Shown: piece after piece, positions 2,862-21,358 of the stretch
Numbering within the stretch: the first letter of the stretch is position 1
How the letters are laid out: every line of letters starts with the position of its first letter
From: an uncultured Verrucomicrobiae bacterium
GTDB lineage: Bacteria; Verrucomicrobiota; Verrucomicrobiia; Chthoniobacterales; Chthoniobacteraceae
Length of the DNA: 64,000 nucleotides
Assembly: GCA_963769025.1 (NCBI GenBank)
Contig: CAVYKI010000002.1
Coordinates: 288,001-352,000 of the forward strand
Direction of reading: 5' to 3'
The notes under the pieces: generated by a model
Databases searched by the model: none
Told to the model about the DNA's origin: nothing
What the model saw: the letters and a program-made list of their open reading frames with translations, nothing else
Program-made: the position numbers and the translations under genes

Positions 2862-4244
2862 TCAGGACTTCGAGGACGCCTTGAGGGGCTTGCCTTCGAT
2901 CTTCCGGTAAAGCGTCGCCATGCTGATGCCGAGCGTCTTCGCGGCCTTCTCGCGGTTGCCGGAGCTGCGCTTGATGGTTTCCTCGATGAAGCGCCGCTCC
3001 TGATCGCGGATGAAGGCATCCAGCTTCTTGCCGACCGGCATCGCGCCGTCGCCGCCTTTTCCGCTGCCGGACGGGCCTTCGAGGAGCTGCGGCGGGAGAT
3101 CCTTCACGAGGATGAGATCCTCGTCGCACAGCGCGCTCGCGCGCTCGATGGCGTTTTCCAGTTCACGCACATTGCCCGGCCAGTCGTAGCCCTGGAGCGC
3201 CTCGATGGCCTTCGGGTCGATTTTCATCGCGCGCGGATTCGGCCCGGTGGCGGACTTTTTCAGGAAATGCTGGACGAGGAGCGGGATGTCCTCGGGCCGG
3301 TCGCGCAACGGCGGCAGCTCGATGGGAATGACCGCGAGCCGGTAGTAGAGATCCTCGCGGAACTTGCCGTCCTTCACCTTGTCGAGCAGCGACTCGTTCG
3401 TCGCGCCGAGCACGCGCACATTGATGGGCAGCGTCTTCGTGTCGCCGACGCGGCGGAGCTGGCGCTCCTGGAGCACGCGGAGCAGCTTCGTCTGGAGCGG
3501 CAGGGCCATCGAGTTCACCTCGTCGAGGAAAATGGTGCCCTTTTCCGCCTCCTCGAAGAGCCCCGCCTTGTCCGACACCGCACCGGTGAAGGAGCCCTTC
3601 TTGTGGCCGAACAGCTCGCTCTCGAGCAGGTTCTCCGGCAGCGCGGAGCAGTTGATGGCGACGAAGGGATGATGCTGCCGGCTGCTGTTGAAATGCAGCG
3701 CCCGCGCGACGAGCTCCTTGCCCGTGCCGCTCTCGCCCTGGATCAAAATCGTCGAGTCGGTGTCCGCGATCTTGCGGATGAGGTGATAGACCTCGTCCAT
3801 CTTCGGCGACGTGCCGATGATGTTCTCCGGGTTCGTCGCGCGCTTCACGACCTTCTTCAGCGTGTCGCGCTCCTTCGCCGTGTCGGAAAACTCGATGACG
3901 TGCTTCACCCGCGCCTGCATCTCGGAAATCTTGAACGGCTTGCGGATGTAATAGCGGGCACCCTCGGCGATGGCCTTTTCCGCGATCTCCTCGTTGCCCT
4001 GCCCGGTCATCAGGATCACCTCGCAGCTCTCCAGCGCCGCCTTGACCTGCCGCAGGATCTCGAAGCCGTCCACCTTGCCCATCTTGATGTCGCTGATGAC
4101 GAGCGCCGGCGCGATGGTCTCGATCTGTTCGAGCGCCTTCTGGCTGTTGGTGAAGGGGAACGTCTCGTGGCCCATCTCCTTGCAGGCTGTGACGACGAGT
4201 TCGACGATGTTCGGTTCATCGTCCACGATAAGGATCTTGGCCAT
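2862..4244 (-). CDS. Sigma-54-dependent response regulator (NtrC/AtoC family: receiver, AAA+, Fis-type HTH)
   Basis: MAKILIVDDE receiver start; Walker A GESGTGKE; ESELFGHKKGSFTGA (GAFTGA variant); FLDE; WPGNVRELEN; HTH AAKTLGISMATLYRKI. Confidence 0.95.
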   Translation of the reverse strand: MAKILIVDDEPNIVELVVTACKEMGHETFPFTNSQKALEQIETIAPALVISDIKMGKVDGFEILRQVKAALESCEVILMTGQGNEEIAEKAIAEGARYYIRKPFKISEMQARVKHVIEFSDTAKERDTLKKVVKRATNPENIIGTSPKMDEVYHLIRKIADTDSTILIQGESGTGKELVARALHFNSSRQHHPFVAINCSALPENLLESELFGHKKGSFTGAVSDKAGLFEEAEKGTIFLDEVNSMALPLQTKLLRVLQERQLRRVGDTKTLPINVRVLGATNESLLDKVKDGKFREDLYYRLAVIPIELPPLRDRPEDIPLLVQHFLKKSATGPNPRAMKIDPKAIEALQGYDWPGNVRELENAIERASALCDEDLILVKDLPPQLLEGPSGSGKGGDGAMPVGKKLDAFIRDQERRFIEETIKRSSGNREKAAKTLGISMATLYRKIEGKPLKASSKS

Positions 4245-4277
4245 GGTCTTGGGTAGGTTGGGCTGAAAGCGCGTCGC

Positions 4278-4341
4278 TCTCGGAAATGAGAGTATTGCAG
4301 GAATGAGAGCGGGCAAATCAAATCCGCTATCGGAATTGAGA
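4278..4341. promoter_or_regulatory. Three imperfect 14-bp palindromes (consensus about TCTCA-N4-TGAGA) upstream of the NtrC-family gene; putative autoregulatory sites
   Basis: TCTCG-GAAA-TGAGA at 4278-4291, TTGCA-GGAA-TGAGA at 4295-4308, TATCG-GAAT-TGAGA at 4328-4341. Confidence 0.55.
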
Positions 4342-4364
4342 ATCGCCGGGCGGAGGGGCAGCCC

Positions 4365-5024
4365 CTAGGCGGACGTTTTCATGCCGAGCCGCTTGCGGAC
4401 GCTGTTCTCAAACTGGAACAGCGGATGCATGAGCGAGGCCACGGAATCGGGGAGAAGGTTCGGGCCGCGCGGGCCGTCGGGGGCGGTCTTTTCCAGGAAA
4501 AGGAGGGAGCCGGCGAGTTCGAGGCGGTGGTAGTTCCGGTTGTTCGCCAGAAAGTAGTCGGCGGCCCACTTTACCGAGCGCAGGCGCGGCGTGTAGTCGT
4601 GCAGCGCGAGGATGCCGTTGGGGTTCACGAGCGCCGCCCAGTGCAGGTCCTGCATCACGTAGCGGAACTTGTGGGTGCCATCGATGAGGACAAAATCGAA
4701 CGACTCAAGGACCCGCCGGGAATGCCGGAAGGCGTCCCAGCTTCGCATCTCGCGGAATTCCACGGTGTCGAGCGGGAGCCCGTGCGAGGTGACATTCTGC
4801 TCCACGACCTGCCGCTGGTTGGCGAAATAGTTCATCGTGTCGATGACGACGAAGGGCGGCCGGTGCGGTGTGGCCTGCATCATTTCGCAGAGCGTGCCGC
4901 CGGCTGCGGTGCCGATTTCCAGGTGCCTGCCGGGCCGCGGGCGTGCGCGCAGAATGCTCCGGAGCGCCTCCAGTTCCGGCTGGGTCATTTCCGAGGTTAG
5001 CTGCGTCGCGCAAGGGCGTTCCAT
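4365..5024 (-). CDS. Class I SAM-dependent methyltransferase (Methyltransf_24-like)
   Basis: LEIGTAAGGT motif I, FDFVLIDGTH, GILALHDY. Alternative start at 4988. Confidence 0.85.
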   Translation of the reverse strand: MERPCATQLTSEMTQPELEALRSILRARPRPGRHLEIGTAAGGTLCEMMQATPHRPPFVVIDTMNYFANQRQVVEQNVTSHGLPLDTVEFREMRSWDAFRHSRRVLESFDFVLIDGTHKFRYVMQDLHWAALVNPNGILALHDYTPRLRSVKWAADYFLANNRNYHRLELAGSLLFLEKTAPDGPRGPNLLPDSVASLMHPLFQFENSVRKRLGMKTSA

Positions 5025-5077
5025 CCGCGGCGATGTTCGGCACTGCGCGCGGCGCGCGCAAGAAAAACTCCGGGCTT

Positions 5078-8000
5078 TCAGCCTTTGCGCGCGGCGAACT
5101 GCGCGGCGGCGTGCTCCAGCCAGCCGGCATCCGGCGCCGCGTAAGGGCGGAAGGTTTCCAGCGAACCGGCCTGCTCGTTGTAGAGCAGCGCGCGGTGCAG
5201 GCCGAGGTTGCTCGCCTTCGGCGAATCGATGAGGCTCGCGGAGTCGTTCGCGCTCATCTGGAAGACGATCCGCATTTCAAATTCGCTCAGCGCCTTCCGG
5301 CTCATCGTGCGGTTGACGTTGTTGAACGAGTCCACCGTCGCGATGATGTGGATGCCGAGCGCGCTGCCTTCCGAGATGATCTCGTTGAACGCGGCGCCGG
5401 GGCTCGACTCGCCGTCGCCGCCACCGAAACTGAAGTCGTCCTCGTGGCGCAGCTTCTTGAATTTGTGCAGGCCATGGACAAACAGGAACACCGATGGCGC
5501 ACCCGCGGCCGGCGTCTCGCCGCTCGCGCGCGCCTTCATCTCGGTGGAAAGATTGCCCAGCACCTCGGGAATCTCCTGCGCGGTGGCGAGCGTGACAGCC
5601 TCCGGCATCATCGCCGCGACCTGTTCGAGCAAAGCGGCGTCCGGCGTCCCGGGCGTCGCGGAGTGGATCAAAATGCACCGCACCGCTCCCGGCGGATGCT
5701 GCGCGGCAAGCGCGACGATGGAGAGCGCGACCATCGTGAGCGCGGCTTCCTCGCGCTGGCCGACGATGAGCAGGTGGTTCCCGCTCTGGCGGTGAAATGC
5801 CGCCTCCGTCGGCCCCTTGATCGAATTTGGCGCTCCGAACCAGCAACGCGCCGCGGCCGGAGGCGCAGTCGGAGGCGAGGCGAGCGCGGCGGCGAGCAGA
5901 TCGTTCTCGCGGATGCTGGCGGGCGCGTTGCCCTCGAAGACGATCGCGCTTCGCTGCGGCTCATGGCGCTCGTCGGCGAGCGCACGGACCTTGTCGAGCC
6001 ACTTGTCGCGCTCGTCGTCGGGCAGCCAGACGACCTGGAAGGGGCTGTTGCCCTCGATGGCGCCGCCCGCGTCGTTGTAGATGCCTTCGCCGGGCCGCGA
6101 GAGGAGGCGCGGGGCGGAGTTCGTGTCGTCCATGATGAGATACGCGTCGGCCTCGTTGCACTGCAGCGCGACGCGGATGACCATCTGCCCGAGCGTCGCG
6201 CGGGCGAGCGAATACGCGCCGCCGAGGCTCTGCGAGCCGAGCAGCACGTGGATGCCAAAGGCGCGGCCCTGCCGCACGATGCGGTCGAACAGCAGCGAGG
6301 CCGTCTGCGCGATGCTGTCGTCCTCGACGAAGAACTCCTGGAATTCGTCAATCAGCAGCAGCGAGCGCGGCATCGGCTCCGTCCCGCCGGCGCGCTTGTA
6401 GCCCGCGACGTCCTGCACGCCGAGCTTGCGGAACATGTCGCCGCGCCGCTTCAGCTCCTCGTCCACGCGCTGGAGGACGCTGAGCGCGAATTCCCGGTCG
6501 CTCTCGATCGCCACGACGCGCGCGTGCGGCAGCCGCTTGTTCGCGTAGCATTTGAATTCGACGCCCTTCTTGAAATCGATGAGGTAGAACTCCACCTGCT
6601 CCGGCGAGCACGCGAGCGCGAGATTCGTGATGATCACGTGGAAGAGCGTGGATTTTCCCGATCCCGTCTTGCCTGCGAAGAGCGCGTGCTGCCGCGTGCC
6701 CTTGCCGATGGCGAGATACTGCATCTTCGTCGCGCCGGTGCGGCCGATGGGGATGCGCAGTTCGTTCGTCGTCTCGTTCGTCCAGAGTTCCGCCGGCTTC
6801 GGCGCGATCTGCTCGAACGGCACCTGCACGCGGTTCGAGTCCACGCTGCTCTTGCCGATTTTGTGGACGAGGCTCTGCGCGAGCGCGGCGTCCGGCGGCG
6901 GGTCGAGCACGAGCGCTGCGCCGGCCTCGGCCTGCTCGCGGCCGGTGGTGAAAGTGTTCCCCTCGGCGCGCAGGCACACGCTGCTCTTCCGCAATTCCTC
7001 CACGGAAAACCCGTCCGGCAGCGGCTGGCGCTGGTCCCAGTGGATCAGCGTAAATACCCCGCAGCGCGGCCCGCTGATGGCGATGCTCTGCAGCCGCTTC
7101 GCCGCAGTCTCGCTGAAGCCGGAGGGAAAGTCCGCGATGACGAGGAAATAGTATTTTTCCGCCACGCTGCCCGCCTGCTCGTTGTAGGCGGTGATGTTCG
7201 CGTACTCGTTGCGCAGATACATCTGGATGACTTTCTCGATGTGTTCGTTGATCTCGCCGAGCCGCTCGTCGAGCTGCTCGCGCTGCGTCCAGATGCGGCG
7301 GTTGATGATGGCCTCCTCGTAGTCGCCGAGGTGCATGAGCCCCGCGAAATTTTCGCCGAGGCCGACGGGATCGAAAATGGTGAAGCTGAGTTTCCCCGGC
7401 GGAGTCGTCGAGAGCAGCCGGAGGATCACGTTGTTCAGCACGCTCATCGTCGCACCGCCGCACGATTCGCGCGTCTCAAAAAGCAGCGAGCCCTGCTGCG
7501 GATACGTGAGCGCGAGCGGGATGGACACCTGCGGCGGCCCGGGCAGCGCGAGCCGCGAGACGGCGGTGGAGGCATCGGGCCGCTTTGCAAGGTCGAGGCT
7601 CAGTTGCGCGAATTTCGTCGCCGGTGTGAACTTCACGCGCGGCTCCCATTCCTCGACAACGCGCGCGGTCCACTCGGGGAAATCCGGCGCGAGCGCGGCG
7701 TTCAGTGCGGCGATTTCCTCGTAGAGCGGCGTGATCTCCGCCTTCCACGCCGCGTCGAGTTCGTCCCACCTCGCCTTCTCATTCGCGAGGATGGCGCTCA
7801 TTTCGGATGCGCGGGCGGCTTCCACCTCGCGCCGTTTTTCGGCGGTGCGTTGCTGGAATTCCCGCACCTTCGCATCCGTGCGGGAACGGACTTCCGCGAG
7901 CTGCCGGCGAAGGCGCTCCTGGAGTTTTTGCGTGAGCCTCGGGAGTTGCGGTTCGAGCTTTTGCCGGCCCTTCTGCTCGAATTCCGCCTCGAGGTTGTCC

Positions 8001-8968
8001 GCCTTTGCCCATTTGGTTTCGAGGTCGGCAAACGTCCGGTCGTATTCGTCCTGCAGGCGCTGGCGTTCGGCCTTGTGCTGTGCTTCGGCGGCGGCGATGC
8101 CCGCCCGGAGCGCGCGAAACGCATCGAGGATCGCCGCGCCCGTTTTTTCCGCCTCGGCCTTCGCGCCGTTCCGGCCGGTGACGTAGGCGAAAATGCAGCC
8201 GGCGGTGAGGAGCACCGCCACGGCCGCGCCCGCGACGTAAAGCGGCGCGGAAAGGCCGCGCGCGAAGACGACCGCGACGCCGATGAGCACGGCAAGCACG
8301 ATGCACACTGGCAGCGGCATCGCGCTGAAAAGGCGCGGCAGCGGCAGCGCGCGGAATGTCGCGAGCTGCTCCGTCGCGGCGGCGATCCGGGATTCGATCT
8401 CGCCCTGGAAATCATCAGGCGCGTCGGCGATCCGCCTTTCACCCTCGCGCTCGGTCAGCGTCTGCGCGAACGAACTGTAGCCGCTGAAGGCCTTCACGGT
8501 TTGCGCCGTGATGCCGTCGAGCGCCGCGCGTTGCTGGGCGAGCGTCTGCGACAGCGCGGCGTGGTCGCCGTCGTTCTTCTTGGTGCCGGCGGTGTGGGCG
8601 CGCTCGGCGCGGAGCTGGCGCATCTGGAGTTCACCCAGCCAGTTTCCCTTCGCATCCTGTGCGCGCTTGGGGAGCGTGCGCGTCAGAAGCCCATGGGCGC
8701 GCTGCACTCGGCCGAGCCGGCGATCATGGATTTCCTGGAGCCGCTCGGCCTCCTTTGCGGAAAGGGCTTCCGCCTCTGCGATCTGCGCGGCGAGCGCGCC
8801 GTCGTCCTTGTGCATCGCCTCGCGGTGCCGCCGCATTTCCTGATAGTTCCGCGCGGAAAGCGTGCTGGTCAGCTCCGCTTCCTTTTTCGCAAACGCCGCG
8901 ACCGTCCTCGTCAGCCTCGCGAGGAGCTCGAGCGCATGGGAAAATCGCAGATCGGGGCCGCTACTCAC
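5078..8968 (-). CDS. FtsK/SpoIIIE-family ATPase, EssC/EccC-like (coiled coils, 2 TM helices, three RecA-like domains)
   Basis: Intact Walker A HALFAGKTGSGKST, LIDFKKGVEF, Walker B LLIDEFQE, GRAFGIHVLLGSQ; flanking degenerate domains (GPRCGVFTL; GSALGIHII). Probable GTG start at 8968 overlaps the upstream stop. Confidence 0.9.
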   Translation of the reverse strand: MSSGPDLRFSHALELLARLTRTVAAFAKKEAELTSTLSARNYQEMRRHREAMHKDDGALAAQIAEAEALSAKEAERLQEIHDRRLGRVQRAHGLLTRTLPKRAQDAKGNWLGELQMRQLRAERAHTAGTKKNDGDHAALSQTLAQQRAALDGITAQTVKAFSGYSSFAQTLTEREGERRIADAPDDFQGEIESRIAAATEQLATFRALPLPRLFSAMPLPVCIVLAVLIGVAVVFARGLSAPLYVAGAAVAVLLTAGCIFAYVTGRNGAKAEAEKTGAAILDAFRALRAGIAAAEAQHKAERQRLQDEYDRTFADLETKWAKADNLEAEFEQKGRQKLEPQLPRLTQKLQERLRRQLAEVRSRTDAKVREFQQRTAEKRREVEAARASEMSAILANEKARWDELDAAWKAEITPLYEEIAALNAALAPDFPEWTARVVEEWEPRVKFTPATKFAQLSLDLAKRPDASTAVSRLALPGPPQVSIPLALTYPQQGSLLFETRESCGGATMSVLNNVILRLLSTTPPGKLSFTIFDPVGLGENFAGLMHLGDYEEAIINRRIWTQREQLDERLGEINEHIEKVIQMYLRNEYANITAYNEQAGSVAEKYYFLVIADFPSGFSETAAKRLQSIAISGPRCGVFTLIHWDQRQPLPDGFSVEELRKSSVCLRAEGNTFTTGREQAEAGAALVLDPPPDAALAQSLVHKIGKSSVDSNRVQVPFEQIAPKPAELWTNETTNELRIPIGRTGATKMQYLAIGKGTRQHALFAGKTGSGKSTLFHVIITNLALACSPEQVEFYLIDFKKGVEFKCYANKRLPHARVVAIESDREFALSVLQRVDEELKRRGDMFRKLGVQDVAGYKRAGGTEPMPRSLLLIDEFQEFFVEDDSIAQTASLLFDRIVRQGRAFGIHVLLGSQSLGGAYSLARATLGQMVIRVALQCNEADAYLIMDDTNSAPRLLSRPGEGIYNDAGGAIEGNSPFQVVWLPDDERDKWLDKVRALADERHEPQRSAIVFEGNAPASIRENDLLAAALASPPTAPPAAARCWFGAPNSIKGPTEAAFHRQSGNHLLIVGQREEAALTMVALSIVALAAQHPPGAVRCILIHSATPGTPDAALLEQVAAMMPEAVTLATAQEIPEVLGNLSTEMKARASGETPAAGAPSVFLFVHGLHKFKKLRHEDDFSFGGGDGESSPGAAFNEIISEGSALGIHIIATVDSFNNVNRTMSRKALSEFEMRIVFQMSANDSASLIDSPKASNLGLHRALLYNEQAGSLETFRPYAAPDAGWLEHAAAQFAARKG

Positions 8969-9170
8969 AATCGTTGTGCACCTTTCTGAGCAGGACGCTG
9001 ATCTCATCCATCGCCGTCGCCGTGCGGGCCGTGAGGTTCGGCAGCCGTTCGAGGTAGTTGTGCTCGAACTCGTCCGCCTTCACGTCGCGCCAGTGAGCCT
9101 TCGTCTGCTCCCATTTCTGGGACAGTTCCTTGAAAGCCTGCGCGAGGGTGGCGTTGCCTTCTTCACTCAT
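8961..9170 (-). CDS. Small helical WXG100-like protein (69 aa, W-R-D turn)
   Basis: KWEQTKAHWRDVKADEFEHNYL; overlaps both neighbours, consistent with translational coupling. Confidence 0.75.
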   Translation of the reverse strand: MSEEGNATLAQAFKELSQKWEQTKAHWRDVKADEFEHNYLERLPNLTARTATAMDEISVLLRKVHNDCE

Positions 9171-9706
9171 GGATTTGCGTCGGTTTCACTCGATGGCGCC
9201 TCCGGCGCGGCGGGAGCGGGTTCGCCGGCGGGAGCGGAGCGCTCGGCGTAGGCATCGAGGATCTCGCGGGCTCGGTAGAGGAAGGTGATCGCATCCGGCA
9301 TTTCCTGATCGAGGTAATCCCGGAAGCCGTCGAGCTTCTTCACGAGCGGATCGGCCGCGGCGTCGAAGTTCTGGTTCCACTTTTTCACGTTCCGCAGCTT
9401 TTGGTGCGCCTCCTCGACCGCCGCCTTCGCCTTTCGTACGACCGCCTCGCGCATCGCGATGGCGCCGGTCATCTTCGTGAGTCGCGCGCTGTAAAGTTCC
9501 TGCACGGCCTGGTCGAGCAGCCGCTGCCTGCGCCGGATTTCCCCCTCCCAATGCATCCGCTGGTCGTGCTGCAGCCAGTTCCGCGTCCGCCGCACGCGGT
9601 CGCGCACGGTGTCCACGGACTGCCGCGCCTTCGTCACGAAAATGACCATGCTCGCGCGCAACGCATCGAGCGCATCGACCGACGTGACCCTTGCCTGCGT
9701 GCCCAT
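9167..9706 (-). CDS. Coiled-coil protein of the WXG100/FtsK cluster (179 aa)
   Basis: Strongly helical composition, W53-E-G, no signal peptide; its stop overlaps the next ATG (ATGA). Confidence 0.75.
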   Translation of the reverse strand: MGTQARVTSVDALDALRASMVIFVTKARQSVDTVRDRVRRTRNWLQHDQRMHWEGEIRRRQRLLDQAVQELYSARLTKMTGAIAMREAVVRKAKAAVEEAHQKLRNVKKWNQNFDAAADPLVKKLDGFRDYLDQEMPDAITFLYRAREILDAYAERSAPAGEPAPAAPEAPSSETDANP

Positions 9707-9710
9707 TGGG

Positions 9711-9738
9711 TGAGTTGAGAGTTGAAGGTTGAGAGTTG
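9711..9738. repeat. Heptamer tandem repeat, 4 units (consensus AGAGTTG)
   Basis: TGAGTTG AGAGTTG AAGGTTG AGAGTTG, ending 4 bp before the minus-strand ATG at 9706. Confidence 0.8.
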
Positions 9739-9778
9739 AGAGGTCGGAGAATGGATCGCACTGCCTGCGTCGGGACGG

Positions 9779-10051
9779 TCAGCGCTGGTCGAGGTATTCC
9801 TCGATGCGCTGCGCCTTCCGCAGCAGGTAGGGCGTGTGCTTCTCCGCGATCTCCACGAATTTCTTCAGCACCTTCATCGTGGTGATGAACTCCTCGGCAA
9901 ATTTCTCCGCCTCCTGATCCTGCCACGAGCTGCCCAGCGCCGCGAACCGCGCCTGAAGCGATCCCGCCTTCGCCTGCACGTCGTCGTTGAAACGTTTCAG
10001 CTCCTTCGCAAACCGGCGCACTTCTTCTGGGTCGATGATTGCCTGGGCCAT
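9779..10051 (-). CDS. WXG100-family type VII secretion target (90 aa, W-Q-D variant)
   Basis: MAQAIIDPEEVRRFAKELKRF...LGSSWQDQEAEKFAEEF...EEYLDQR. Size, the IDPEEV N-terminus and central W43 fit an ESAT-6-like helical hairpin. Confidence 0.85.
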   Translation of the reverse strand: MAQAIIDPEEVRRFAKELKRFNDDVQAKAGSLQARFAALGSSWQDQEAEKFAEEFITTMKVLKKFVEIAEKHTPYLLRKAQRIEEYLDQR

Positions 10052-10199
10052 GGTCGTGGATTTCTGGGGTTGGGGAGCGGGAGACGAAGGAATGATAACG
10101 CCCGGCCCGTGCAGTTCAATACGCGCGTTGGTTTCCGACAAAATGTTCACGGCCCCGCGTTGCACTTTTCGCCGCGAATGCTCACCGTCCACCGCCTCC

Positions 10200-11183
10200 A
10201 TGAAACGTTGCTTCCTCCTCTTTGCCCTCGGTTTCGCCGTCACCTCCATCGCGTTCGCCGAGGAAAAATCCGCCTCGTCTCCCGCTCCGAAGCCGGCACC
10301 GCCCCGCGTGTCCGATGCGGTCGAACGGAAGGCCGACCTGCCCTACGCCGGGAACGACAATCCGCGCCAGGCGCTCGACCTTTACCTCCCGAAAAAGCGC
10401 TCGACCGACAAGCCGCTGCCGGTCGTGGTGTACATCCACGGCGGCGGATGGAGCGGAGGCAGCCGGGCGGGCGGGGGGATGGCCGCGGGCTTCGCGGCAT
10501 CTGGAAATTACGCCGGCATCAGCGTCGGCTACCGGCTTTCCGGGGAGGCGAAATGGCCCGCGCAAATCCACGACTGCAAGGCCGCCATCCGCTGGATCCG
10601 CGGCCATGCGAAGGAATACAACCTTGATCCCGACCGCATCGGCGTCACCGGCACCTCCGCGGGCGGACACCTCGTCTGCCTGCTCGGGCTCACCCAGGGC
10701 GTGAAGGAGCTCGAGGGAAGCATCGGCGAATTCACCAGCCTCAGCTCACGAGTCACGTGCGTCGCAAATTACTGCGGGCCCACCGACATGGCCGCGCCGC
10801 TCATGCAGGGCGAAGCCGCGCTGAAGGACGATCCCGCCGTCGCCGGATTACTCGGCGGTCCCATCGCGGAAAAGGCCGCCGAGGCGAAAGCCAGTTCGCC
10901 GCTCACCTACGTCGGCCCGGGCAAACCGCCCTTCCTCACCGCACATGGAACGAAGGACATGCGCGTGAATTTCACCAACGCCACGAAGCTCCACGAGGCG
11001 CTCACGAAGGCCGGCAATTCCTCGATCCTCCTCGCCATGACCGACGCCGGCCACGGCTTCGGCAGCCCGGAACTCAACAAGCGCGTGCAGCAGTTCTTCG
11101 ACATGCACCTGCGCGGCATCCAATCGGAGATCTCCTCCGAGCCCATCCCGCTGCCCGCTCCTGCCCAGCCGGCGAAACGATAG
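10200..11183 (+). CDS. Secreted alpha/beta hydrolase (HSL-like lipase/esterase)
   Basis: Signal peptide MKRCFLLFALGFAVTSIAFA; HGGGW; GTSAGGHL; HGTKD; AGHG. Confidence 0.9.
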   Translation: MKRCFLLFALGFAVTSIAFAEEKSASSPAPKPAPPRVSDAVERKADLPYAGNDNPRQALDLYLPKKRSTDKPLPVVVYIHGGGWSGGSRAGGGMAAGFAASGNYAGISVGYRLSGEAKWPAQIHDCKAAIRWIRGHAKEYNLDPDRIGVTGTSAGGHLVCLLGLTQGVKELEGSIGEFTSLSSRVTCVANYCGPTDMAAPLMQGEAALKDDPAVAGLLGGPIAEKAAEAKASSPLTYVGPGKPPFLTAHGTKDMRVNFTNATKLHEALTKAGNSSILLAMTDAGHGFGSPELNKRVQQFFDMHLRGIQSEISSEPIPLPAPAQPAKR

Positions 11184-15442: not shown

Positions 15443-18400
15443 ATGAAACGCCACGCACTTTTCGCATGCGCGACTGCCGTAGTGGCGATGGTCGCGGTGG
15501 CGATCTGGTTCATGAGTCGGGGCGAAATTGCGGACCCGAAAAGATGGGCTGAAGGTCCGGCTGCCGCGGTCGCCGTTCCGGCCGATGCGGTGCAACGCGC
15601 GGCGCTTCCGCCAGCCCCGGAAGCCAACGCCGCGCGGGCCGCGGGAGTGAAAGGTCCGGCTTCGGCGATCGACGCATTCAACGAGTGGGCGGCTCGCTAC
15701 CTCGCCGCGGGCGCGACCGAACGCGCACGGCTCGTGGACGAAGGGCTGACGCTCGCGAATGCGCGCCGGTCGGAATTGCGCGACATCATCGTGCAGGATC
15801 CGCGGCGCGCGATCGAGAATGCGGTGCCGCCGGTGGTGCGTCAGCAATTACCGCCCGTGGTGGCGCAGCGGCTGGAGGAGCGGGTGAATGAGGCGGCTTT
15901 TTTCGGCGTCATGGGTGTGTTGCCTTCGGCGGAAAATCCCGATGTTCCTCCGTACCGGCGCGAGGTGCGGATGCGAGATGGCGGGTATTACCGGGCGTTC
16001 GTGTATGGAGAGCGACTCACGCAGCAGACGACGGAGAGCACGTCCATCGTGGGCGTCGCGGTGGATGATCTAATGGCCGTGGACGAGCGGCGGCTGCGGA
16101 CCGTGGCGAGCGGGGAGATCCCGAATCATCCGAACAATCTCACGCGCGAGCGGACCGTGGCGAAGACCGATGCGCAGGGCTTTTCGCTCGGACGGCAGAT
16201 CACCACCGCGCCGGCGCCGCCTCGTGACACGGTGGAGACGTGCCCCATTTCCGGACTGAGCACCGTCGTCCCGAAAGCGGACGATGGCGGCTTCGCGCCC
16301 GTGGGGAGCGAGCAGATTGTCGTCGAGGCGGGTGGAAAATTTCACTTTCTGTGCACTGGCGGGCACATCCACGCGTTCGAGGAGGAGCTCATCGCGCGCG
16401 AGGGCGGCAACGGAGGCCCGACGCAGCCGACCTCGCCGCCCACGGCCACACAGAGCACGGGCTACAAGTCGCACCTGCTCATGCGAATCGCATTTCCCGA
16501 GGCGCTCAAGGGCAGCGTGACGGAGAAGGAAGGCCACGACCTCGGAAAGAACGTTCAGGATTGGCTTCTCGACTCGAGCTACGGCGCGATGACCTTTGCC
16601 ACCACGGTCACGCCATTGCTCATCCTGCCACGGACCGAGGCGTGGTACAAGGAACAGGACACCGGCGGCAATGCCTACGAAGTGCTCACCGACGCACGCG
16701 CCGCCGCGAAGGCCGCCGGTTTTGATCCGGCAAATTTCAACTTCGACACCGTAATCTACACCGGCAGTCCGGGCGGCTTCAGCGGCCAGGCCTACGTCGG
16801 CTCGAAAGGATGCTGGCTGAAGTCCGGCACCAACACCGGCGTCGCCTGCCACGAATACGGCCACAACTTCGGCCTCTGGCACGCGAACTTCTGGAGCACG
16901 ACGAACGGCTCGGTGATCGGCGGAGGAACGCACTCCGAATACGGCGACAGCTTTGACACGATGGGCACCGCAAGCGCGGGCGATTTGCAGTTCAATGCGT
17001 GCCACAAGAACATCCTCAACTGGATTCCAACGACGCTCGTGAACGATGCGACGACGAGCGGGACCTATCGCATCTACCAGATGGATCAGCCGCGCCAGGA
17101 CCCGCGCCTGCGCTACGCCCTGAAAATCCGCAAGGACAGCGACCGGGATTACTGGGTCGATCTGCGGCAGCGCTTCACGAGCAATGCGTGGGTGCAGGGC
17201 GGTGTCTTTCTCCACTGGAGCGCGTGGCTGCCGAGCAAGAGCGGCACGCACCTGCTCGACACCACGCCCGGCTCGCCGGACGCCAAGAACGACGCGCCGC
17301 TCCCGATAGGACGCACGTTCAGCGACGTGGAATCGGGCGTCCACATCACGCCCATCGCAAAAAACACCACGACTTCGCCGACGAGCGTGGACGTGGTGGT
17401 GAATCTCGGGACGTTCGCGGGAAACAGCGTGCCCGTCGTGGGCGTCGGCGCCAGCGCGACCAGTGTGGCGACTTCGACGAACGTGACTTTCACCGCAACC
17501 GCGACCGATGCCGACGGCGATGTGCTGAGCTACGCGTGGGATTTCGGCGACAAAGGCTTCAGCACGACAAATTCGCCGGTCGTCACGAAATCGTGGGCGA
17601 CGGCAGGCGAGTATCGCGTGCGATGCACGGCTTCCGACTTGAAGGGTGGCACCGCGAGCGCGTCGGTGATCGTCACCGTGGGTTCGCCGGGCACGTTTCG
17701 CATCGCGGGGACAGTCACCTCGGCCGGGCAGCCGCTGAAGGATGTGCGCGTCTACAATGGTCTGAGCGGCACGAACTATCGCGAGGCTTACACCGACAGC
17801 AACGGGACCTACACGCTCGTCGGACTTGCCGCTGGGACATACAATGTGGACGCGAAGATTTACGGATACGCATTCGGTCAGGAGGCAACGACCATCACGG
17901 TCGGCCCCAGCAAGAGCGGCGTTGATTTCACCGCAGACCCACGCGCGATGGTGAGCATCGCAGTGCAGGACGCGGATTGCAGCGAGGGTGCGAACACGGG
18001 TTCGTTCCGGATCACGCGCACGGGTTCGACGGCGGCGGCGCTCACCGTCCAGCTTTACTTGCCGACAGGCTCCGCGACGAAAGGCAGCGACTACACGCTG
18101 GCTCCCGATGTGGTTGCTGTCAGCCCTTATCAGACACTCACGATTCCCGCCGGCCAGCCGTTCCTCGACGTCGTGGTGACGGCGGCGATCGACGCCTCGG
18201 TCGAGAGCTTCGAGCGCGTGACCTTGGAACTCGCGCCGTCGGCCAGCTACGTCCTCGGCAACGCGACCTCGACGATCTGGATCACCGACAGCAACACGGC
18301 GAATCCGCTTGTCCGGATGCGCGTCACGAAGCGCGACGCTGCGGAGGGCGGGACGGGCGGCCAGTTTCTCATCGAGCGGATCGGCCCGACCACGAACGCG

Positions 18401-21358
18401 CTGAATGTGACCGTGGCGATCAGCGGCACTGCGACCGCCGGTGTTGACTACGTGGCGATCCCGACGACCGTCACCATCCCGGCTGGAGCTTCCACCGCGC
18501 TGGTGAATCTGACGCCGCTGCAGGACACGGCAATCGAGGCGGTCGAGACCGTGATCCTGACGATCAGCACCGGCTCCGGCTACGTCCGTGCGGCGTCGAG
18601 CGCAGACTACTCGGGGACGGTGAACGTGTATGATGACGACGCGCCCGTCGTCACGGTTGTCGCCACGGACAGCGCGGCATCCGAGGCTGGCAACGATCCG
18701 GGCGCCTTCACCATCACGCGCACCGGCGACACCACTCTCCCGCTCACGGTGAACTACGGACTCACCGGCAGCGCGCTCCACGGCACCGACTACGTGGCGC
18801 TGCCGGGCGTGCTTACCATTCCAGCCGGGAGCGCCGTGGCGACCGTCGTCATCACGCCGATCGAGGACTCCATCGGCGAGCCGGCGCAGACCGCCGTGCT
18901 CCAGCTTCGCAGCGGTCTTGGATACTTGGTCGGCGCGGCATCGAACGCGACCGTCACCATCACCGACAATGGCGACATTCCCTACGCCAGCATCGCCGTC
19001 ACGGCCGGTCCCGCCTTGGAAAGCGGAACCGCGGGCACTTTCCGAATCACCACCACCGGCACCGGGACCGGTAACATCGACGTGAAGTACACCGTCACCG
19101 GCACCGCGACGAATGGCACGGACTACGGTACGCTGAGCGGTACGGTGACCATGGGAAAGAACGCGACAGCCAGCATCACGATCACTCCCATCCAGGATCA
19201 ACTCGAGGAGGGCTACGAGACCATCATCATCACGCTGACTCCCGATCCGGCCTATTCGCTCGCGCTCGACGCATCGGCCACGATGAATTTGCAGGACGAT
19301 GAGGCCCCGCAGGTGAACGTGTCCGGCACGGATGACATATTCACAGAGACGAACGGCAGCCTCGCGAAATTCTTCGTCTCGCGCACGGGATCCGTCACGA
19401 GTGCGCTCACGGTGAACTACACGCTCGGCGGCACGGCCACCGCCGGAGTGGACTACACCGCGCCGAGCGGCAGCGTGACGATCACCGCCGGGACGACCGG
19501 CGCCTACGTGGATATCTCGATGCTCGACGACACGCTCTCCGAAGGCACCGAGACGATCATTTTCAACGTGACGGCCAATCCCGCCTACACGATCGGGATC
19601 GGCTCGGTCACGCGCTATATCACCGATGCGGAGGCGGCTTCCGTGGCGACGCAGGTGCGATTTTCCGCGGGAACTTCCAGCTCTTCGGAGGGCGCCGGCA
19701 CGGTGAGTATTCCCGTCACGCTCAGTGCCGCCTCCGCGGAGACCGTGACGGTCGAATATGTCATCAACGGCGGCACCGCGCTCGGGGCGGGGATCGATTA
19801 CTCGCTTGCTCCCGGTGTCCTCACATTCGCAGCCGGCGTGACATCGCAGGACATCCCTGTGCTCATCAGCGACGACACCCTCAAGGAGGCAAACGAAACG
19901 GTCATTCTCCTGCTCATCAATCCGGCCAGTGCGAGGCTCGGCACGAGTTCGCACACGCTTACGATCACCGACAACGATTCGCCGCCCGGAGTCACCGTCG
20001 GCTTCGCGGGTGCGACCGGCAGCGGCCTGGAATCGCAGTCGCCCGCGCCGCTCGCCGTCTCTCTGAGCACTGCGCAGGCGACCGCTGTCACCGTGGACTA
20101 CGCGGTGACCGGCGGCACGGCGACCGATGGCGCCGACTACGCCATCAGCAATGGCACGCTGACCTTCGCCGCCGGCGAGACGGTGAAAGTGATCCCCAAC
20201 ACCATCACCAACGATCTCACCCAGGAGCCGAACGAGACGATCATCCTCACGCTCAGCAATCCCGTCGGCGCGGCGCTCAGTCCGAATCCCATGTTCACTT
20301 ACACGATCATCGACGACGACGCGACGACGGTGACGATCTCCGCGACCGATCCGGCCGCAGCCGAGCCCGGCTCGGACACCGGCACTTTCACGATCGCCCG
20401 CACCGGCTCCACGGCGTCGGCGCTCACCGTGAATCTCGCGATCACCGGAACCGCGACGAGCGGGGCCGACTACGTCAACATCAGCGACACCGTGGTCATT
20501 CCCGCTGGCGCCGCGAACGTGGCGGTGCCGGTCATCGCCGTGGATGACACGGTCGGGGAGCCGGTCGAAACCGTGATCGCGACCTTGGTCCCGGGCGTTT
20601 ACACGATCGGCTCGCCGGCCAGTGCCACCGTGAATGTTCTTGATGATGAACCGCTCGTGTCCGTCATCGCATCCACGCCCGGCGCTGTGGAGCCGAACAC
20701 GCCCGGCGCATTCACCGTCACCCGCACCGGCGCGACGACGCGGGCGCTGAGCGTGGTGCTGGACGTTTCCGGCACCGCGACGCCCGGCGCGGACTACACG
20801 GCATTGCCTGCAAGCGTGGTGATCCCGTCCGGTGCCGCATCCATCGGGATTCAGGTCGCGCCGCTTCCCGATTCGCTGGCCGAGGGCAGCGAGACCGTGG
20901 TGCTCACGATCGCTCCCGCGAATGATTATTGGCCGGGCACGCCGGCTTCGGCCACGGTCACGATTGCGGATCTGCCGATTCAGGCGTGGCGCATGGCGAA
21001 ATTTGGGGCAAACGCGAACAACCCGGCCATCGCCGGCGATTTTGTGGATCCCGACCACGACGGGCTCGTGAATCTCCTCGAATACGGTTTCAATACAAAC
21101 CCGCTCGCATGGAACGAGGGCCCGACACTGGCGGAGGACGGCAGCGATTGCATCGTGACCTACCGTCGCAACCTCGCAGCGACCGATGTCATGCTCAGCG
21201 TGCTTGCCAGCGACGATTTCGCCACGTGGGGCGATGCGGGTGCGACCGGGCAGCTTATTTCCGATGACGGAATGACCCAGGTGATCGCTGCCAGGGTCCT
21301 GCGCCCGGTAGGCGTGCCATATTTCCTCCGGGTGGGTGTCCAATACGTGGCTCCGTAG
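15443..21358 (+). CDS. Giant exported metzincin metallopeptidase (M11-like) with PKD, carboxypeptidase-regulatory-like and multiple Calx-beta domains
   Basis: N-terminal signal/anchor; HEYGHNFGLWH and Met-turn DTMG; PKD LSYAWDFGD; repeated FTITRTG...GTATxGxDY...ExxETVILTL; C-terminal DPDHDGLVNLLEYGFNTNP...FLRV. Confidence 0.88.
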   Translation: MKRHALFACATAVVAMVAVAIWFMSRGEIADPKRWAEGPAAAVAVPADAVQRAALPPAPEANAARAAGVKGPASAIDAFNEWAARYLAAGATERARLVDEGLTLANARRSELRDIIVQDPRRAIENAVPPVVRQQLPPVVAQRLEERVNEAAFFGVMGVLPSAENPDVPPYRREVRMRDGGYYRAFVYGERLTQQTTESTSIVGVAVDDLMAVDERRLRTVASGEIPNHPNNLTRERTVAKTDAQGFSLGRQITTAPAPPRDTVETCPISGLSTVVPKADDGGFAPVGSEQIVVEAGGKFHFLCTGGHIHAFEEELIAREGGNGGPTQPTSPPTATQSTGYKSHLLMRIAFPEALKGSVTEKEGHDLGKNVQDWLLDSSYGAMTFATTVTPLLILPRTEAWYKEQDTGGNAYEVLTDARAAAKAAGFDPANFNFDTVIYTGSPGGFSGQAYVGSKGCWLKSGTNTGVACHEYGHNFGLWHANFWSTTNGSVIGGGTHSEYGDSFDTMGTASAGDLQFNACHKNILNWIPTTLVNDATTSGTYRIYQMDQPRQDPRLRYALKIRKDSDRDYWVDLRQRFTSNAWVQGGVFLHWSAWLPSKSGTHLLDTTPGSPDAKNDAPLPIGRTFSDVESGVHITPIAKNTTTSPTSVDVVVNLGTFAGNSVPVVGVGASATSVATSTNVTFTATATDADGDVLSYAWDFGDKGFSTTNSPVVTKSWATAGEYRVRCTASDLKGGTASASVIVTVGSPGTFRIAGTVTSAGQPLKDVRVYNGLSGTNYREAYTDSNGTYTLVGLAAGTYNVDAKIYGYAFGQEATTITVGPSKSGVDFTADPRAMVSIAVQDADCSEGANTGSFRITRTGSTAAALTVQLYLPTGSATKGSDYTLAPDVVAVSPYQTLTIPAGQPFLDVVVTAAIDASVESFERVTLELAPSASYVLGNATSTIWITDSNTANPLVRMRVTKRDAAEGGTGGQFLIERIGPTTNALNVTVAISGTATAGVDYVAIPTTVTIPAGASTALVNLTPLQDTAIEAVETVILTISTGSGYVRAASSADYSGTVNVYDDDAPVVTVVATDSAASEAGNDPGAFTITRTGDTTLPLTVNYGLTGSALHGTDYVALPGVLTIPAGSAVATVVITPIEDSIGEPAQTAVLQLRSGLGYLVGAASNATVTITDNGDIPYASIAVTAGPALESGTAGTFRITTTGTGTGNIDVKYTVTGTATNGTDYGTLSGTVTMGKNATASITITPIQDQLEEGYETIIITLTPDPAYSLALDASATMNLQDDEAPQVNVSGTDDIFTETNGSLAKFFVSRTGSVTSALTVNYTLGGTATAGVDYTAPSGSVTITAGTTGAYVDISMLDDTLSEGTETIIFNVTANPAYTIGIGSVTRYITDAEAASVATQVRFSAGTSSSSEGAGTVSIPVTLSAASAETVTVEYVINGGTALGAGIDYSLAPGVLTFAAGVTSQDIPVLISDDTLKEANETVILLLINPASARLGTSSHTLTITDNDSPPGVTVGFAGATGSGLESQSPAPLAVSLSTAQATAVTVDYAVTGGTATDGADYAISNGTLTFAAGETVKVIPNTITNDLTQEPNETIILTLSNPVGAALSPNPMFTYTIIDDDATTVTISATDPAAAEPGSDTGTFTIARTGSTASALTVNLAITGTATSGADYVNISDTVVIPAGAANVAVPVIAVDDTVGEPVETVIATLVPGVYTIGSPASATVNVLDDEPLVSVIASTPGAVEPNTPGAFTVTRTGATTRALSVVLDVSGTATPGADYTALPASVVIPSGAASIGIQVAPLPDSLAEGSETVVLTIAPANDYWPGTPASATVTIADLPIQAWRMAKFGANANNPAIAGDFVDPDHDGLVNLLEYGFNTNPLAWNEGPTLAEDGSDCIVTYRRNLAATDVMLSVLASDDFATWGDAGATGQLISDDGMTQVIAARVLRPVGVPYFLRVGVQYVAP

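Follow-up and report, generated by a model that had tools for sequence, protein, structure and literature searches.

The 64,000-nucleotide stretch of an uncultured Verrucomicrobiae bacterium analysed here (contig CAVYKI010000002.1; the whole stretch is called the window) carries, at 5078–10051 on its minus strand, a cassette of four co-oriented genes. They encode a WXG100 protein of 90 residues, proteins of 179 and 69 residues, and a 1296-residue ATPase of the FtsK family. The cassette is a member of the known but uncharacterised class of loci made of a 'solo WXG plus three-domain YueA-like ATPase'. By analogy with the EccC and EssC systems, we put the chances at about even that it acts as a stand-alone four-gene type VII-like translocation system that would export helical proteins across the inner membrane. 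What is new here is the domain-level evidence, the predicted fold of the 179-residue protein and its predicted complex with the 69-residue protein, the invariant C-terminal cysteine of the latter, and the conservation ranking of the four genes. The value of the cassette lies in its clear anatomy and in the predicted complex, the kind itself being already known.

An earlier note, made from the letters of the window and a list of its open reading frames (ORFs), had described four co-oriented genes of these sizes at these places. It had reported overlapping start and stop codons in the last three and no signal peptides on the three small proteins, and had proposed a stripped-down type VII secretion system (T7SS). 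The ORFs and both overlaps were confirmed, and no N-terminal hydrophobic stretch is present in any of the three small proteins (the sequences were read directly, with no signal-peptide program). The profile searches that it had suggested also came out above cut-off: the 90-residue protein matches PF06013 (WXG100, Pfam) with 40.3 bits against a cut-off of 27.3 over residues 6–85, and the ATPase matches PF01580 (FtsK_SpoIIIE) with 109.3 bits against a cut-off of 24 over residues 737–914. The description of a T7SS-like cassette composed of a WXG100 protein and an EccC/EssC-like ATPase stands.

The 90-residue protein scores 32.1 with the NCBIfam subfamily model TIGR03930, under its cut-off of 44.85, and has no W-x-G bend motif; W43-Q-D45 is found instead, with W43 and D45 invariant in 68 sequences. 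Judged by sequence, the W-Q-D bend is a subfamily variant of the WXG motif, because Helicobacter pylori HP0062 likewise has W-R-D. A profile of the 68 orthologues has HP0062 as its top match (PDB entries 3FX7 and 2GTS; E 2.3e-10, positions 1–89), followed by Bacillus anthracis EsxB and Staphylococcus aureus EsxA. In the cited part of PMC3397514, HP0062 is a homodimeric four-helix bundle with a W-R-D bend, encoded near an FtsK-like gene, and the window protein shares with it the W-x-D bend in place of W-x-G. The C-terminal tail is nearly invariant in the same 68 sequences (K79, I83, Y86, L87 and Q89). Compared by eye with the C-terminal HxxxD/ExxhxxxH pattern (Poulsen et al., 2014), it shows a partial fit, A80-x3-E84-x2-L87, after which the protein ends.

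The top NCBIfam families for the ATPase are EccCa, EccCb and EssC, with FtsK well behind at 31.1 bits. All three equivalog models (TIGR03924, TIGR03925 and TIGR03928) remain below their curated cut-offs, with scores of 126.9 against 509.15 for EccCa, 100.9 against 346.55 for EccCb and 96.4 against 778.4 for EssC. Canonical EccC consists of a DUF domain plus D1–D3. Like EccC and EssC, the window protein has two membrane helices ahead of its tandem FtsK/SpoIIIE-like domains, and Pfam finds no FHA domain in it. Hydrophobic segments occur at about residues 198–324 in 67/67 representative homologues. The region upstream of them would be cytoplasmic and helical or coiled-coil, and at profile positions 7–211 a designed three-helix bundle is matched weakly. 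In the region that follows the membrane hairpin (residues ∼267–470), the family profile picks up the repeats of apolipoproteins A-I and A-IV (E 5e-8 to 1e-4), a match that is probably due to amphipathic composition; this region could form membrane-surface helices beside the hairpin.

Three FtsK-like domains, here called A, B and C, make up the rest of the chain. Domain A has DPVGLGxNFAG in place of Walker A and VIADFP, which lacks the acid pair of Walker B. The Walker motifs of domain B, AGKTGSGKST and LLIDEFQEF, are invariant. Domain C has degenerate versions of Walker A (LLIVGQxEE) and Walker B (HGLHKF), and its C-terminal half is highly conserved. An hhalign comparison aligns C to B with a probability of 97.8% (E 1.3e-12, 206 columns) and A to C with 96.0% (E 4.4e-9, 173 columns); the direct alignment of A to B is weak (1.5%). 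Taken together, profile comparison shows the three domains to be homologous, with A and C degenerate, and only the middle domain B is predicted to be able to hydrolyse ATP. The top PDB sequence matches of domain B are EccC (PDB entry 4NH0; E 3.1e-34), EccC5 and YukB, all ahead of FtsK; it aligns to residues 489–676 of the EccC5 chain, which we take to be the first nucleotide-binding domain of EccC5.

An AlphaFold2 model of ATPase residues 430–1296 has a predicted local distance difference test (pLDDT) score of 91.2 and a predicted TM-score (pTM) of 0.84. Its best PDB match by Foldseek is the three-domain cytoplasmic EccC of T. curvata (PDB entry 4NH0; E 1.6e-32, 949 columns), followed by two-domain pieces of EccC and EssC and then by FtsK. 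The TM-score to 4NH0 is only 0.40, a low value that is attributed to flexibility between the domains. The assignment to the FtsK family in the earlier note is thus upheld at the level of PF01580 and refined to a protein with three FtsK-like domains, of which the middle one alone is intact, and with scores well short of the EccC and EssC cut-offs.

The 179-residue protein models as one long two-helix hairpin with about 75 residues per arm: helices 5–77 and 80–157 are followed by a disordered tail rich in Pro, Ala and Glu (AlphaFold2, 58 sequences, pLDDT 90.6). It had been described as a coiled coil; the helical character was correct, and the description is now amended to a long two-helix hairpin that is a predicted binder of the 69-residue protein. 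No Pfam family reaches its cut-off with this protein, and a Foldseek search of the PDB gives nothing at E ≤ 0.001, the matches returned being generic coiled-coil hairpins only. The 136 relatives found include Chthoniobacter flavus CfE428DRAFT_3534. A FliJ-like stalk was considered as its identity and rejected: the weak Pfam matches of the orthologues (Prominin in 16/58, ATP-synt_DE in 3/58 and FliJ in 2/58) look like coiled-coil noise.

The 69-residue protein has five invariant residues in 66 sequences (W20, W27, D29, F35 and C68) and ends in D-C-E (window 8961–8972). Cys68 is kept even where its codon is TGC, which cannot form the GTG start of the ATPase gene, and the constraint therefore acts on the 69-residue protein, not on the start codon. 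The window protein matches no Pfam family. Among its orthologues 3/66 give weak matches to PF06013 (best E 0.0023), and hhalign aligns the two W-x-D motifs of the 69-residue and WXG100 families with a probability of 1.1%, which is not significant. A search of the PDB with the family profile finds EsxA at E about 1, and the nearest Pfam-bearing atlas cluster is a WXG100 cluster (0.80), which is only a lead. The protein is probably a short WXG100-like hairpin, with no significant sequence or profile match that would place it in the WXG100 superfamily. A common origin of all three small proteins was also considered; hhalign probabilities of 1.1–2.6% do not support it. Among the protein-language-model look-alikes of the 179- and 69-residue proteins are clusters of about 2900 members, mostly from Planctomycetota, with atlas scores of 0.98 and 0.95.

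The three small proteins were folded together, with the 69-residue protein as the scored partner. The complex score (ipSAE) was 0.77, 0.78 and 0.77 in three runs, and the best of three controls reached 0.02. The mark of 0.77 is reached by 116/157 solved complexes and by 2/215 mismatched pairs, counts that are only a rough guide for this complex, for which custom alignments and three chains were used. The runs share at least 96% of their contacts, and the pLDDT of the 69-residue protein is at least 87. When the 179-residue chain was replaced the score fell to 0.02; the predicted binding of the 69-residue protein therefore depends on the 179-residue protein. The predicted interface comprises hairpin residues 2–53 and 103–146, at the open end, together with nearly the whole of the 69-residue protein and every invariant residue of the latter. 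The invariant Y86, L87 and Q89 of WXG100 also contact the 69-residue protein in the predicted complex. The modelling supports binding of the 69-residue protein by the 179-residue protein, in which the open end of the long hairpin and the W-R-D hairpin are predicted to form a four-helix bundle.

Within the genus, the ATPase is present in 24/24 genomes (23 at E = 0 and one, a very fragmented assembly, as pieces), the cassette apparently occurs as one copy in each, and the four genes stand in the same order in 11/11 loci. A pattern scan with one genome per species gave at least 556 confirmed relatives among at least 599 candidate stretches. The wider loci discussed here are the best 80 of these relatives, almost all of them labelled Verrucomicrobiota; they include Prosthecobacter, Roseibacillus, Luteolibacter, Limisphaerales and a harmless soil bacterium that is in culture, Chthoniobacter flavus Ellin428, whose locus (L039) contains all four genes. 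Gene order was counted in the 71 of the 80 that have at least 1300 nt upstream. All three small genes were found in order by tblastn in 64 of them, and two more in which the 69-residue ORF was seen on inspection bring the count to 66/71. Only the 69-residue gene of the three is retained in L030 and L044, the WXG100 gene is missing from L084, and L077 and L081 have none of the three. When all ORFs of the best 80 loci were clustered, no flanking family occurred in more than six loci, and the larger clusters were the four cassette genes or shadow frames inside them. The recurrence of the four genes is far beyond chance, and the conserved order on which the earlier note had staked its proposal is what we find.

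The genes differ in how strongly they are conserved. The WXG100 protein is 64–91% identical to that of the window in 64 wider loci and 92–98% identical within the genus. Median identities to the window proteins are 71% for WXG100, 50% for the ATPase and 41% each for the 179- and 69-residue proteins.

In an even draw of 400 high-quality genomes across the phylum, an ATPase match at E ≤ 1e-60 is present in 15 genomes, representing 13/184 genera; two of the 15 have only a shorter relative with frames of about 1065 residues. This patchiness could reflect loss or transfer. Identity to the window ATPase declines with taxonomic distance, from 56–86% in the genus to 53–57% in other genera of the order, 47–54% in the class and 38–50% in other classes, and we therefore read the distribution as mostly vertical descent with frequent loss and not as a mobile element. 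The ATPase family is of very large size: clustered at 50%, the matches at E ≤ 1e-30 comprise 2992 representatives, canonical EccC and EssC included, the best 150 of which are all about 1300 residues long with 40–61% identity. The shorter relative has frames of about 1065–1075 residues and is 30–35% identical over residues ∼506–1014; it was seen in other genomes of the phylum, at G197:C2:128188-129705, G294:C73:9105-10622 and G374:C1:1724489-1726027, and genome G374 carries both forms.

The host is a soil-type verrucomicrobium, and the names that its close homologues bear in the databases point to the Chthoniobacteraceae. Genes for Omp85 (223 bits) and LpxC (311 bits) are present in its assembly of 5.34 Mb (13 contigs; completeness 83%, judged by marker genes). 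The host therefore has an outer membrane of the lipopolysaccharide (LPS) type, which agrees with the diderm host supposed in the earlier note. In this 83%-complete genome YukC/EssB, EccB and YukD (PF10140, PF05108 and PF08817) have no match at E ≤ 1, EssA, EccE and EccD (PF10661, PF11203 and TIGR03920) have only sub-cut-off matches (E 0.27–0.86), and LXG gives sub-threshold noise only. None of the canonical accessory parts passes its cut-off, EsaA and MycP not having been searched for; control genomes did pass the cut-offs in these searches, except for EccE, for which no control did. A complete canonical T7SS elsewhere, which would have told against the original proposal, is thus not seen among the searched parts. 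The genome has one gene above the PF06013 cut-off. Two sub-threshold PF06013 matches were considered as extra WXG100 substrates and rejected, one being a low-complexity protein of 930 residues and the other a repeat ORF. A tandem repeat in L002 (G000:C2:420439-423645, at ∼1213–1791), open in several frames on both strands and encoding periodic peptide repeats, gives a spurious weak WXG100 match. The only other strong FtsK-family gene of the host is the presumed housekeeping FtsK (220.7 bits).

The class to which the cassette belongs is already in print. Footnote 6 to Table 1 of Zhang et al. (2012; PMC3482391) records solo WXG domains in lineages that include planctomycetes and verrucomicrobia, and the term used there is 'mobile versions of T7SS'; Uchiyama et al. 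(2016), in the cited passage, treat WxG plus FtsK as the minimal set of a T7SS and name HP0062/HP0066. The window cassette resembles the class of Zhang et al., as outlined in that footnote, in having a single WXG100 gene next to the ATPase gene and three FtsK-like domains, of which the middle one alone is intact. It differs from the cited portions of both accounts in the long hairpin, the 69-residue W-R-D partner, the membrane hairpin and the coiled coils described here. The 'mobile' label of the footnote is not supported in the lineage of the window: no integrase or transfer genes recur in the window or in the best 80 loci. A citing sentence credits Sutcliffe (2011) with reporting WXG100 proteins in Verrucomicrobia. 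The T7SSa–j survey of Garrett et al. (2024) covers Gram-positive bacteria and makes no mention of 'Verrucomicrobi', 'Planctomyc' or 'diderm'. In our literature searches, which had supplements outside their scope, we found no experimental study of the cassette class and no published description of the long-hairpin and 69-residue partners. The statement in the earlier note that related genes in other phyla are poorly characterised therefore holds for bench work and is qualified by the entry in Zhang et al.

Among the established types, T7SSa (ESX) has three traits in common with the cassette: the ATPase of the cassette finds its best match in EccC, in sequence as in fold; a two-helix membrane anchor precedes tandem FtsK-like domains; and the WXG100 protein paired with the ATPase ends in a tail that is conserved. 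It differs from T7SSa in having no EccB, EccD or EccE match above cut-off in the host genome (MycP was not searched for), three P-loop-like domains instead of the four of EccC, a single WXG100 gene instead of an EsxB/EsxA pair, and a host with an LPS-type outer membrane. The single WXG100 gene recalls the mono-cistronic, homodimeric sagEsxA-like type of T7SSb (cited part of PMC3935865), and the WXG100 profile matches EsxB and EsxA of T7SSb as well. A predicted long helical hairpin bound by a small hairpin is also reminiscent of the LXG–Lap pairs (cited part of PMC9600955, together with general background). Unlike T7SSb, the ATPase has coiled coils in the place of FHA domains, the host genome has no match to EssA, EssB or YukD above cut-off (EsaA was not searched for), and there is no LXG domain, no toxin domain in the 179-residue protein and no immunity gene nearby.

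A further comparison is with EssC-like ATPases and WXG100 proteins inside Type III-A CoCoNuT and TerY-P defence loci, reported in the cited sections of Bell et al. (2024; PMC11090510), which in turn cite Anantharaman et al. (2012) for the stand-alone form. According to those sections, these cassettes agree with that of the window in three respects: the ATPase has three domains, activity being predicted for the central one only; it carries a long coiled coil at its N terminus; and of the two WXG100-like proteins one lacks WxG. The same sections give their ATPases no membrane helices, whereas the ATPase of the window has a conserved membrane hairpin, and place them beside VWA, nuclease and McrBC-type genes, whereas the cassette has no defence neighbours.

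For the reading that we favour, export of helical proteins by a stand-alone type VII-like system, a mechanism can be drawn up by analogy with EccC and EssC. In favour of export count the family signals of the WXG100 protein and of the EccC-like ATPase, the three domains with their membrane anchor, the conservation of the four genes as a unit, the predicted complex and the earlier interpretation of the class as a form of T7SS (Zhang et al., 2012). The ATPase would form a hexamer in the inner membrane. Its degenerate last domain would recognise the invariant C-terminal tail of a WXG100 dimer, or the complex of the 179- and 69-residue proteins, and domain B would power the export of folded helical bundles over the inner membrane to the periplasm. 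Since the ATPase is the only membrane component that is conserved, the ring formed by its twelve membrane helices would act as the channel. A bolder version, which we consider unlikely, holds that the hexamer with its own twelve helices is a self-sufficient, single-membrane-component translocon of diderms from the PVC group (Planctomycetes, Verrucomicrobia and Chlamydiae), exporting a rod-shaped complex of the 179-residue protein, the 69-residue protein and the WXG100 dimer for a conserved envelope function. Several observations weigh against export. With the EccC and EssC models the ATPase falls well short of the curated cut-offs, it has three P-loop-like domains rather than four, and the loop of its membrane hairpin is about eight residues long. 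No conserved periplasmic or outer-membrane partner stands beside the cassette in the best 80 loci. The WXG100 protein is more conserved than its ATPase, a ranking that is unusual among secreted effectors and agrees equally with a structural or a regulatory role as a subunit. Learned packing of helical bundles may lie behind the complex prediction, and by analogy with the cited CoCoNuT and TerY-P loci a WXG100/EssC-like pair can work without membrane crossing.

Some of these observations also speak for the main rival, a membrane-anchored ATPase machine whose small proteins would not be exported. They would be permanent subunits, adaptors or regulators, comparable to a stalk or stator, and the motor would act from the cytoplasmic face on another protein, on DNA or on the membrane. 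A WXG100 protein with 64–98% identity, above that of its ATPase, suits a subunit with many contacts; the coupling of the three downstream genes suggests a fixed stoichiometry, and the 179-residue hairpin has generic structural matches only. The tiny periplasmic loop and the resemblance of the region behind it to amphipathic apolipoprotein repeats (possibly a matter of composition) point the same way, as do the related soluble versions in the cited sections of Bell et al. (2024; PMC11090510). We regard this arrangement as possible and somewhat doubtful: as far as is known, all characterised pairs of WXG100 with EccC or EssC secrete (cited parts of PMC11217815 and PMC6986878, and established knowledge), the vicinity has no conserved DNA-binding domain or gene of another candidate cargo, and the invariant WXG100 tail has the look of a recognition signal. 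A module for conflict or defence, with abortive infection or 'defensive secretion' on phage attack or stress as proposed for the TerY-P- and CoCoNuT-linked cassettes, appears improbable. Similar three-domain ATPases with two WXG100 proteins do occur in defence operons (Bell et al., 2024, cited sections of PMC11090510), the class has been called mobile (Zhang et al., 2012, cited footnote in PMC3482391), its phylum distribution is patchy (15/400 genomes and 13/184 genera), and PADLOC matches the ATPase to SspH (87.4 bits), mad8 and HerA. However, those matches are confined to the P-loop region (residues ∼735–958), and of the small proteins WXG100 and the 69-residue protein have no PADLOC match, with a single one at E 0.06 for the 179-residue protein. 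The window has no defence, integrase or mobile-element gene adjoining the cassette, and no such family recurs in the best 80 loci. The presence of an apparently single copy in 24/24 same-genus genomes, an ATPase identity that tracks taxonomy as expected of mostly vertical descent with loss, a downstream sigma-54 regulator common to the window and two relatives, and a purifying conservation of WXG100 unlike that of arms-race genes also argue against defence. It seems to us very improbable that the cassette is what is left of a decayed canonical T7SS, or that the remaining apparatus lies elsewhere in the genome. The 83% completeness of the assembly means that absences are no proof; yet YukC/EssB, EccB, YukD, EssA, EccE, EccD and LXG are all below cut-off across its 5.34 Mb, the four genes are intact and clearly constrained in dozens of genomes, and the best 80 loci have no further gene in common.

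The ATPase of a T7SS works with several other membrane proteins, and both the identity of the channel and the role of the WXG100 proteins are debated; to our knowledge, work on type VII secretion is confined to Gram-positive bacteria and mycobacteria. In the cassette the system is reduced to a single membrane protein with three small helical proteins as its partners. If it does export, it would be the simplest model of the type VII mechanism and a first case from bacteria whose outer membrane contains LPS. Were the self-sufficient translocon to be true, it would be type VII secretion in its simplest natural form and would offer a direct model for the way in which EccC/EssC-type motors move folded helical bundles. 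If it does not export, it would point to a non-secretory role for WXG100/EssC-like pairs, with a bearing on their presence in defence loci.

The coordinates of the cassette and of its neighbours are collected in the table. The stop codon of the 179-residue gene and the start codon of the 69-residue gene share the letters ATGA, an overlap found in 48/59 loci, and the stop of the 69-residue gene overlaps the GTG start of the ATPase gene by 8 nt; these three genes are predicted to be translationally coupled. An in-frame ATG at 9007, upstream of the GTG, would give an ATPase of 1309 residues, 13 more; the alignments of its relatives begin at residues 1–3 of the GTG form.

Coordinates of the four-gene cassette, of the regions of its ATPase and of adjoining features in the window
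Feature	Position	Strand	Remarks
WXG100 protein gene	9779..10051	-	90 aa; W43-Q-D bend, HP0062 type
179-aa protein gene	9167..9706	-	Predicted long helical hairpin
69-aa protein gene	8961..9170	-	W20, W27-R-D29, F35, Cys68
FtsK-family ATPase gene	5078..8968	-	1296 aa; GTG start
ATPase residues 1-205	8354..8968	-	Poorly conserved, charged, upstream of the membrane hairpin; consensus of 14 sequences
Membrane hairpin, ATPase residues ~207-266	8171..8350	-	Two hydrophobic helices; hydropathy scan
Second helical region and linker, ATPase residues ~267-470	7559..8170	-	Follows the membrane hairpin
Domain A, ATPase residues ~471-725	6794..7558	-	FtsK-like fold, alpha/beta in the model
Domain B, ATPase residues ~726-1000	5969..6793	-	Only intact P-loop domain
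Domain C, ATPase residues ~1001-1296 and stop codon	5078..5968	-	FtsK-like fold
Spacer between the WXG100 and 179-aa genes	9707..9778	-	72 nt
Promoter-like site	10092..10119	-	TTGAAC and TATCAT, spaced by 16 nt; lies upstream of the WXG100 start by about 40 nt
Methyltransf_24 gene	4365..5024	-	Between the ATPase gene and the sigma-54 regulator
Sigma-54 response regulator	2862..4316		Downstream of the cassette

The spacer between the WXG100 and 179-residue genes contains 4.4 copies of the heptamer CTCAACT (coding strand) at 9712–9744 and folds no better than shuffled sequences (z +0.34). In four relatives of the same genus the corresponding spacer is 141–166 nt long and is a long stem-loop of inverted heptamer-repeat arrays (L011:590-735, L013:6175-6320, L015:6300-6446 and L017:470-612), with z values of -3.8 to -5.2 and 0/200 shuffles folding equally well; the repeat of the window is a one-armed remnant of this hairpin. 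The gap is mostly 2–5 nt in more distant loci. The hairpin may be a repeat element that was inserted, or it may act within the operon to uncouple the level of WXG100 from that of the three remaining genes. The promoter-like site is the sole one in 4300–10400; shuffled sequences have a mean of 0.5 sites, so that it is not above chance and is listed as a candidate. A terminator scan was uninformative, with seven sites against 6.2 expected, and no Rfam family matches within 4300–10400. A search for sequencing runs gave 22, none of them recorded as RNA, and the 18 that contain the sequence do so with small word shares (at most 0.14).

The neighbours of the cassette are ordinary: a methyltransferase, a sigma-54 response regulator and an esterase, with no T7SS accessory gene or toxin–immunity pair near the cassette in the window, much as the earlier note had it. 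The methyltransferase was considered as a fifth member of the cassette and rejected, being absent from all 91 other loci examined; it looks like a lineage-specific insertion, and in L012 and L014 the sigma-54 regulator directly follows the ATPase gene. Farther along the window, at 15443–21358 on the plus strand, lies the gene of a protein of 1971 residues with six Calx-beta stretches and PKD and CarboxypepD_reg domains, presumably a large surface protein.

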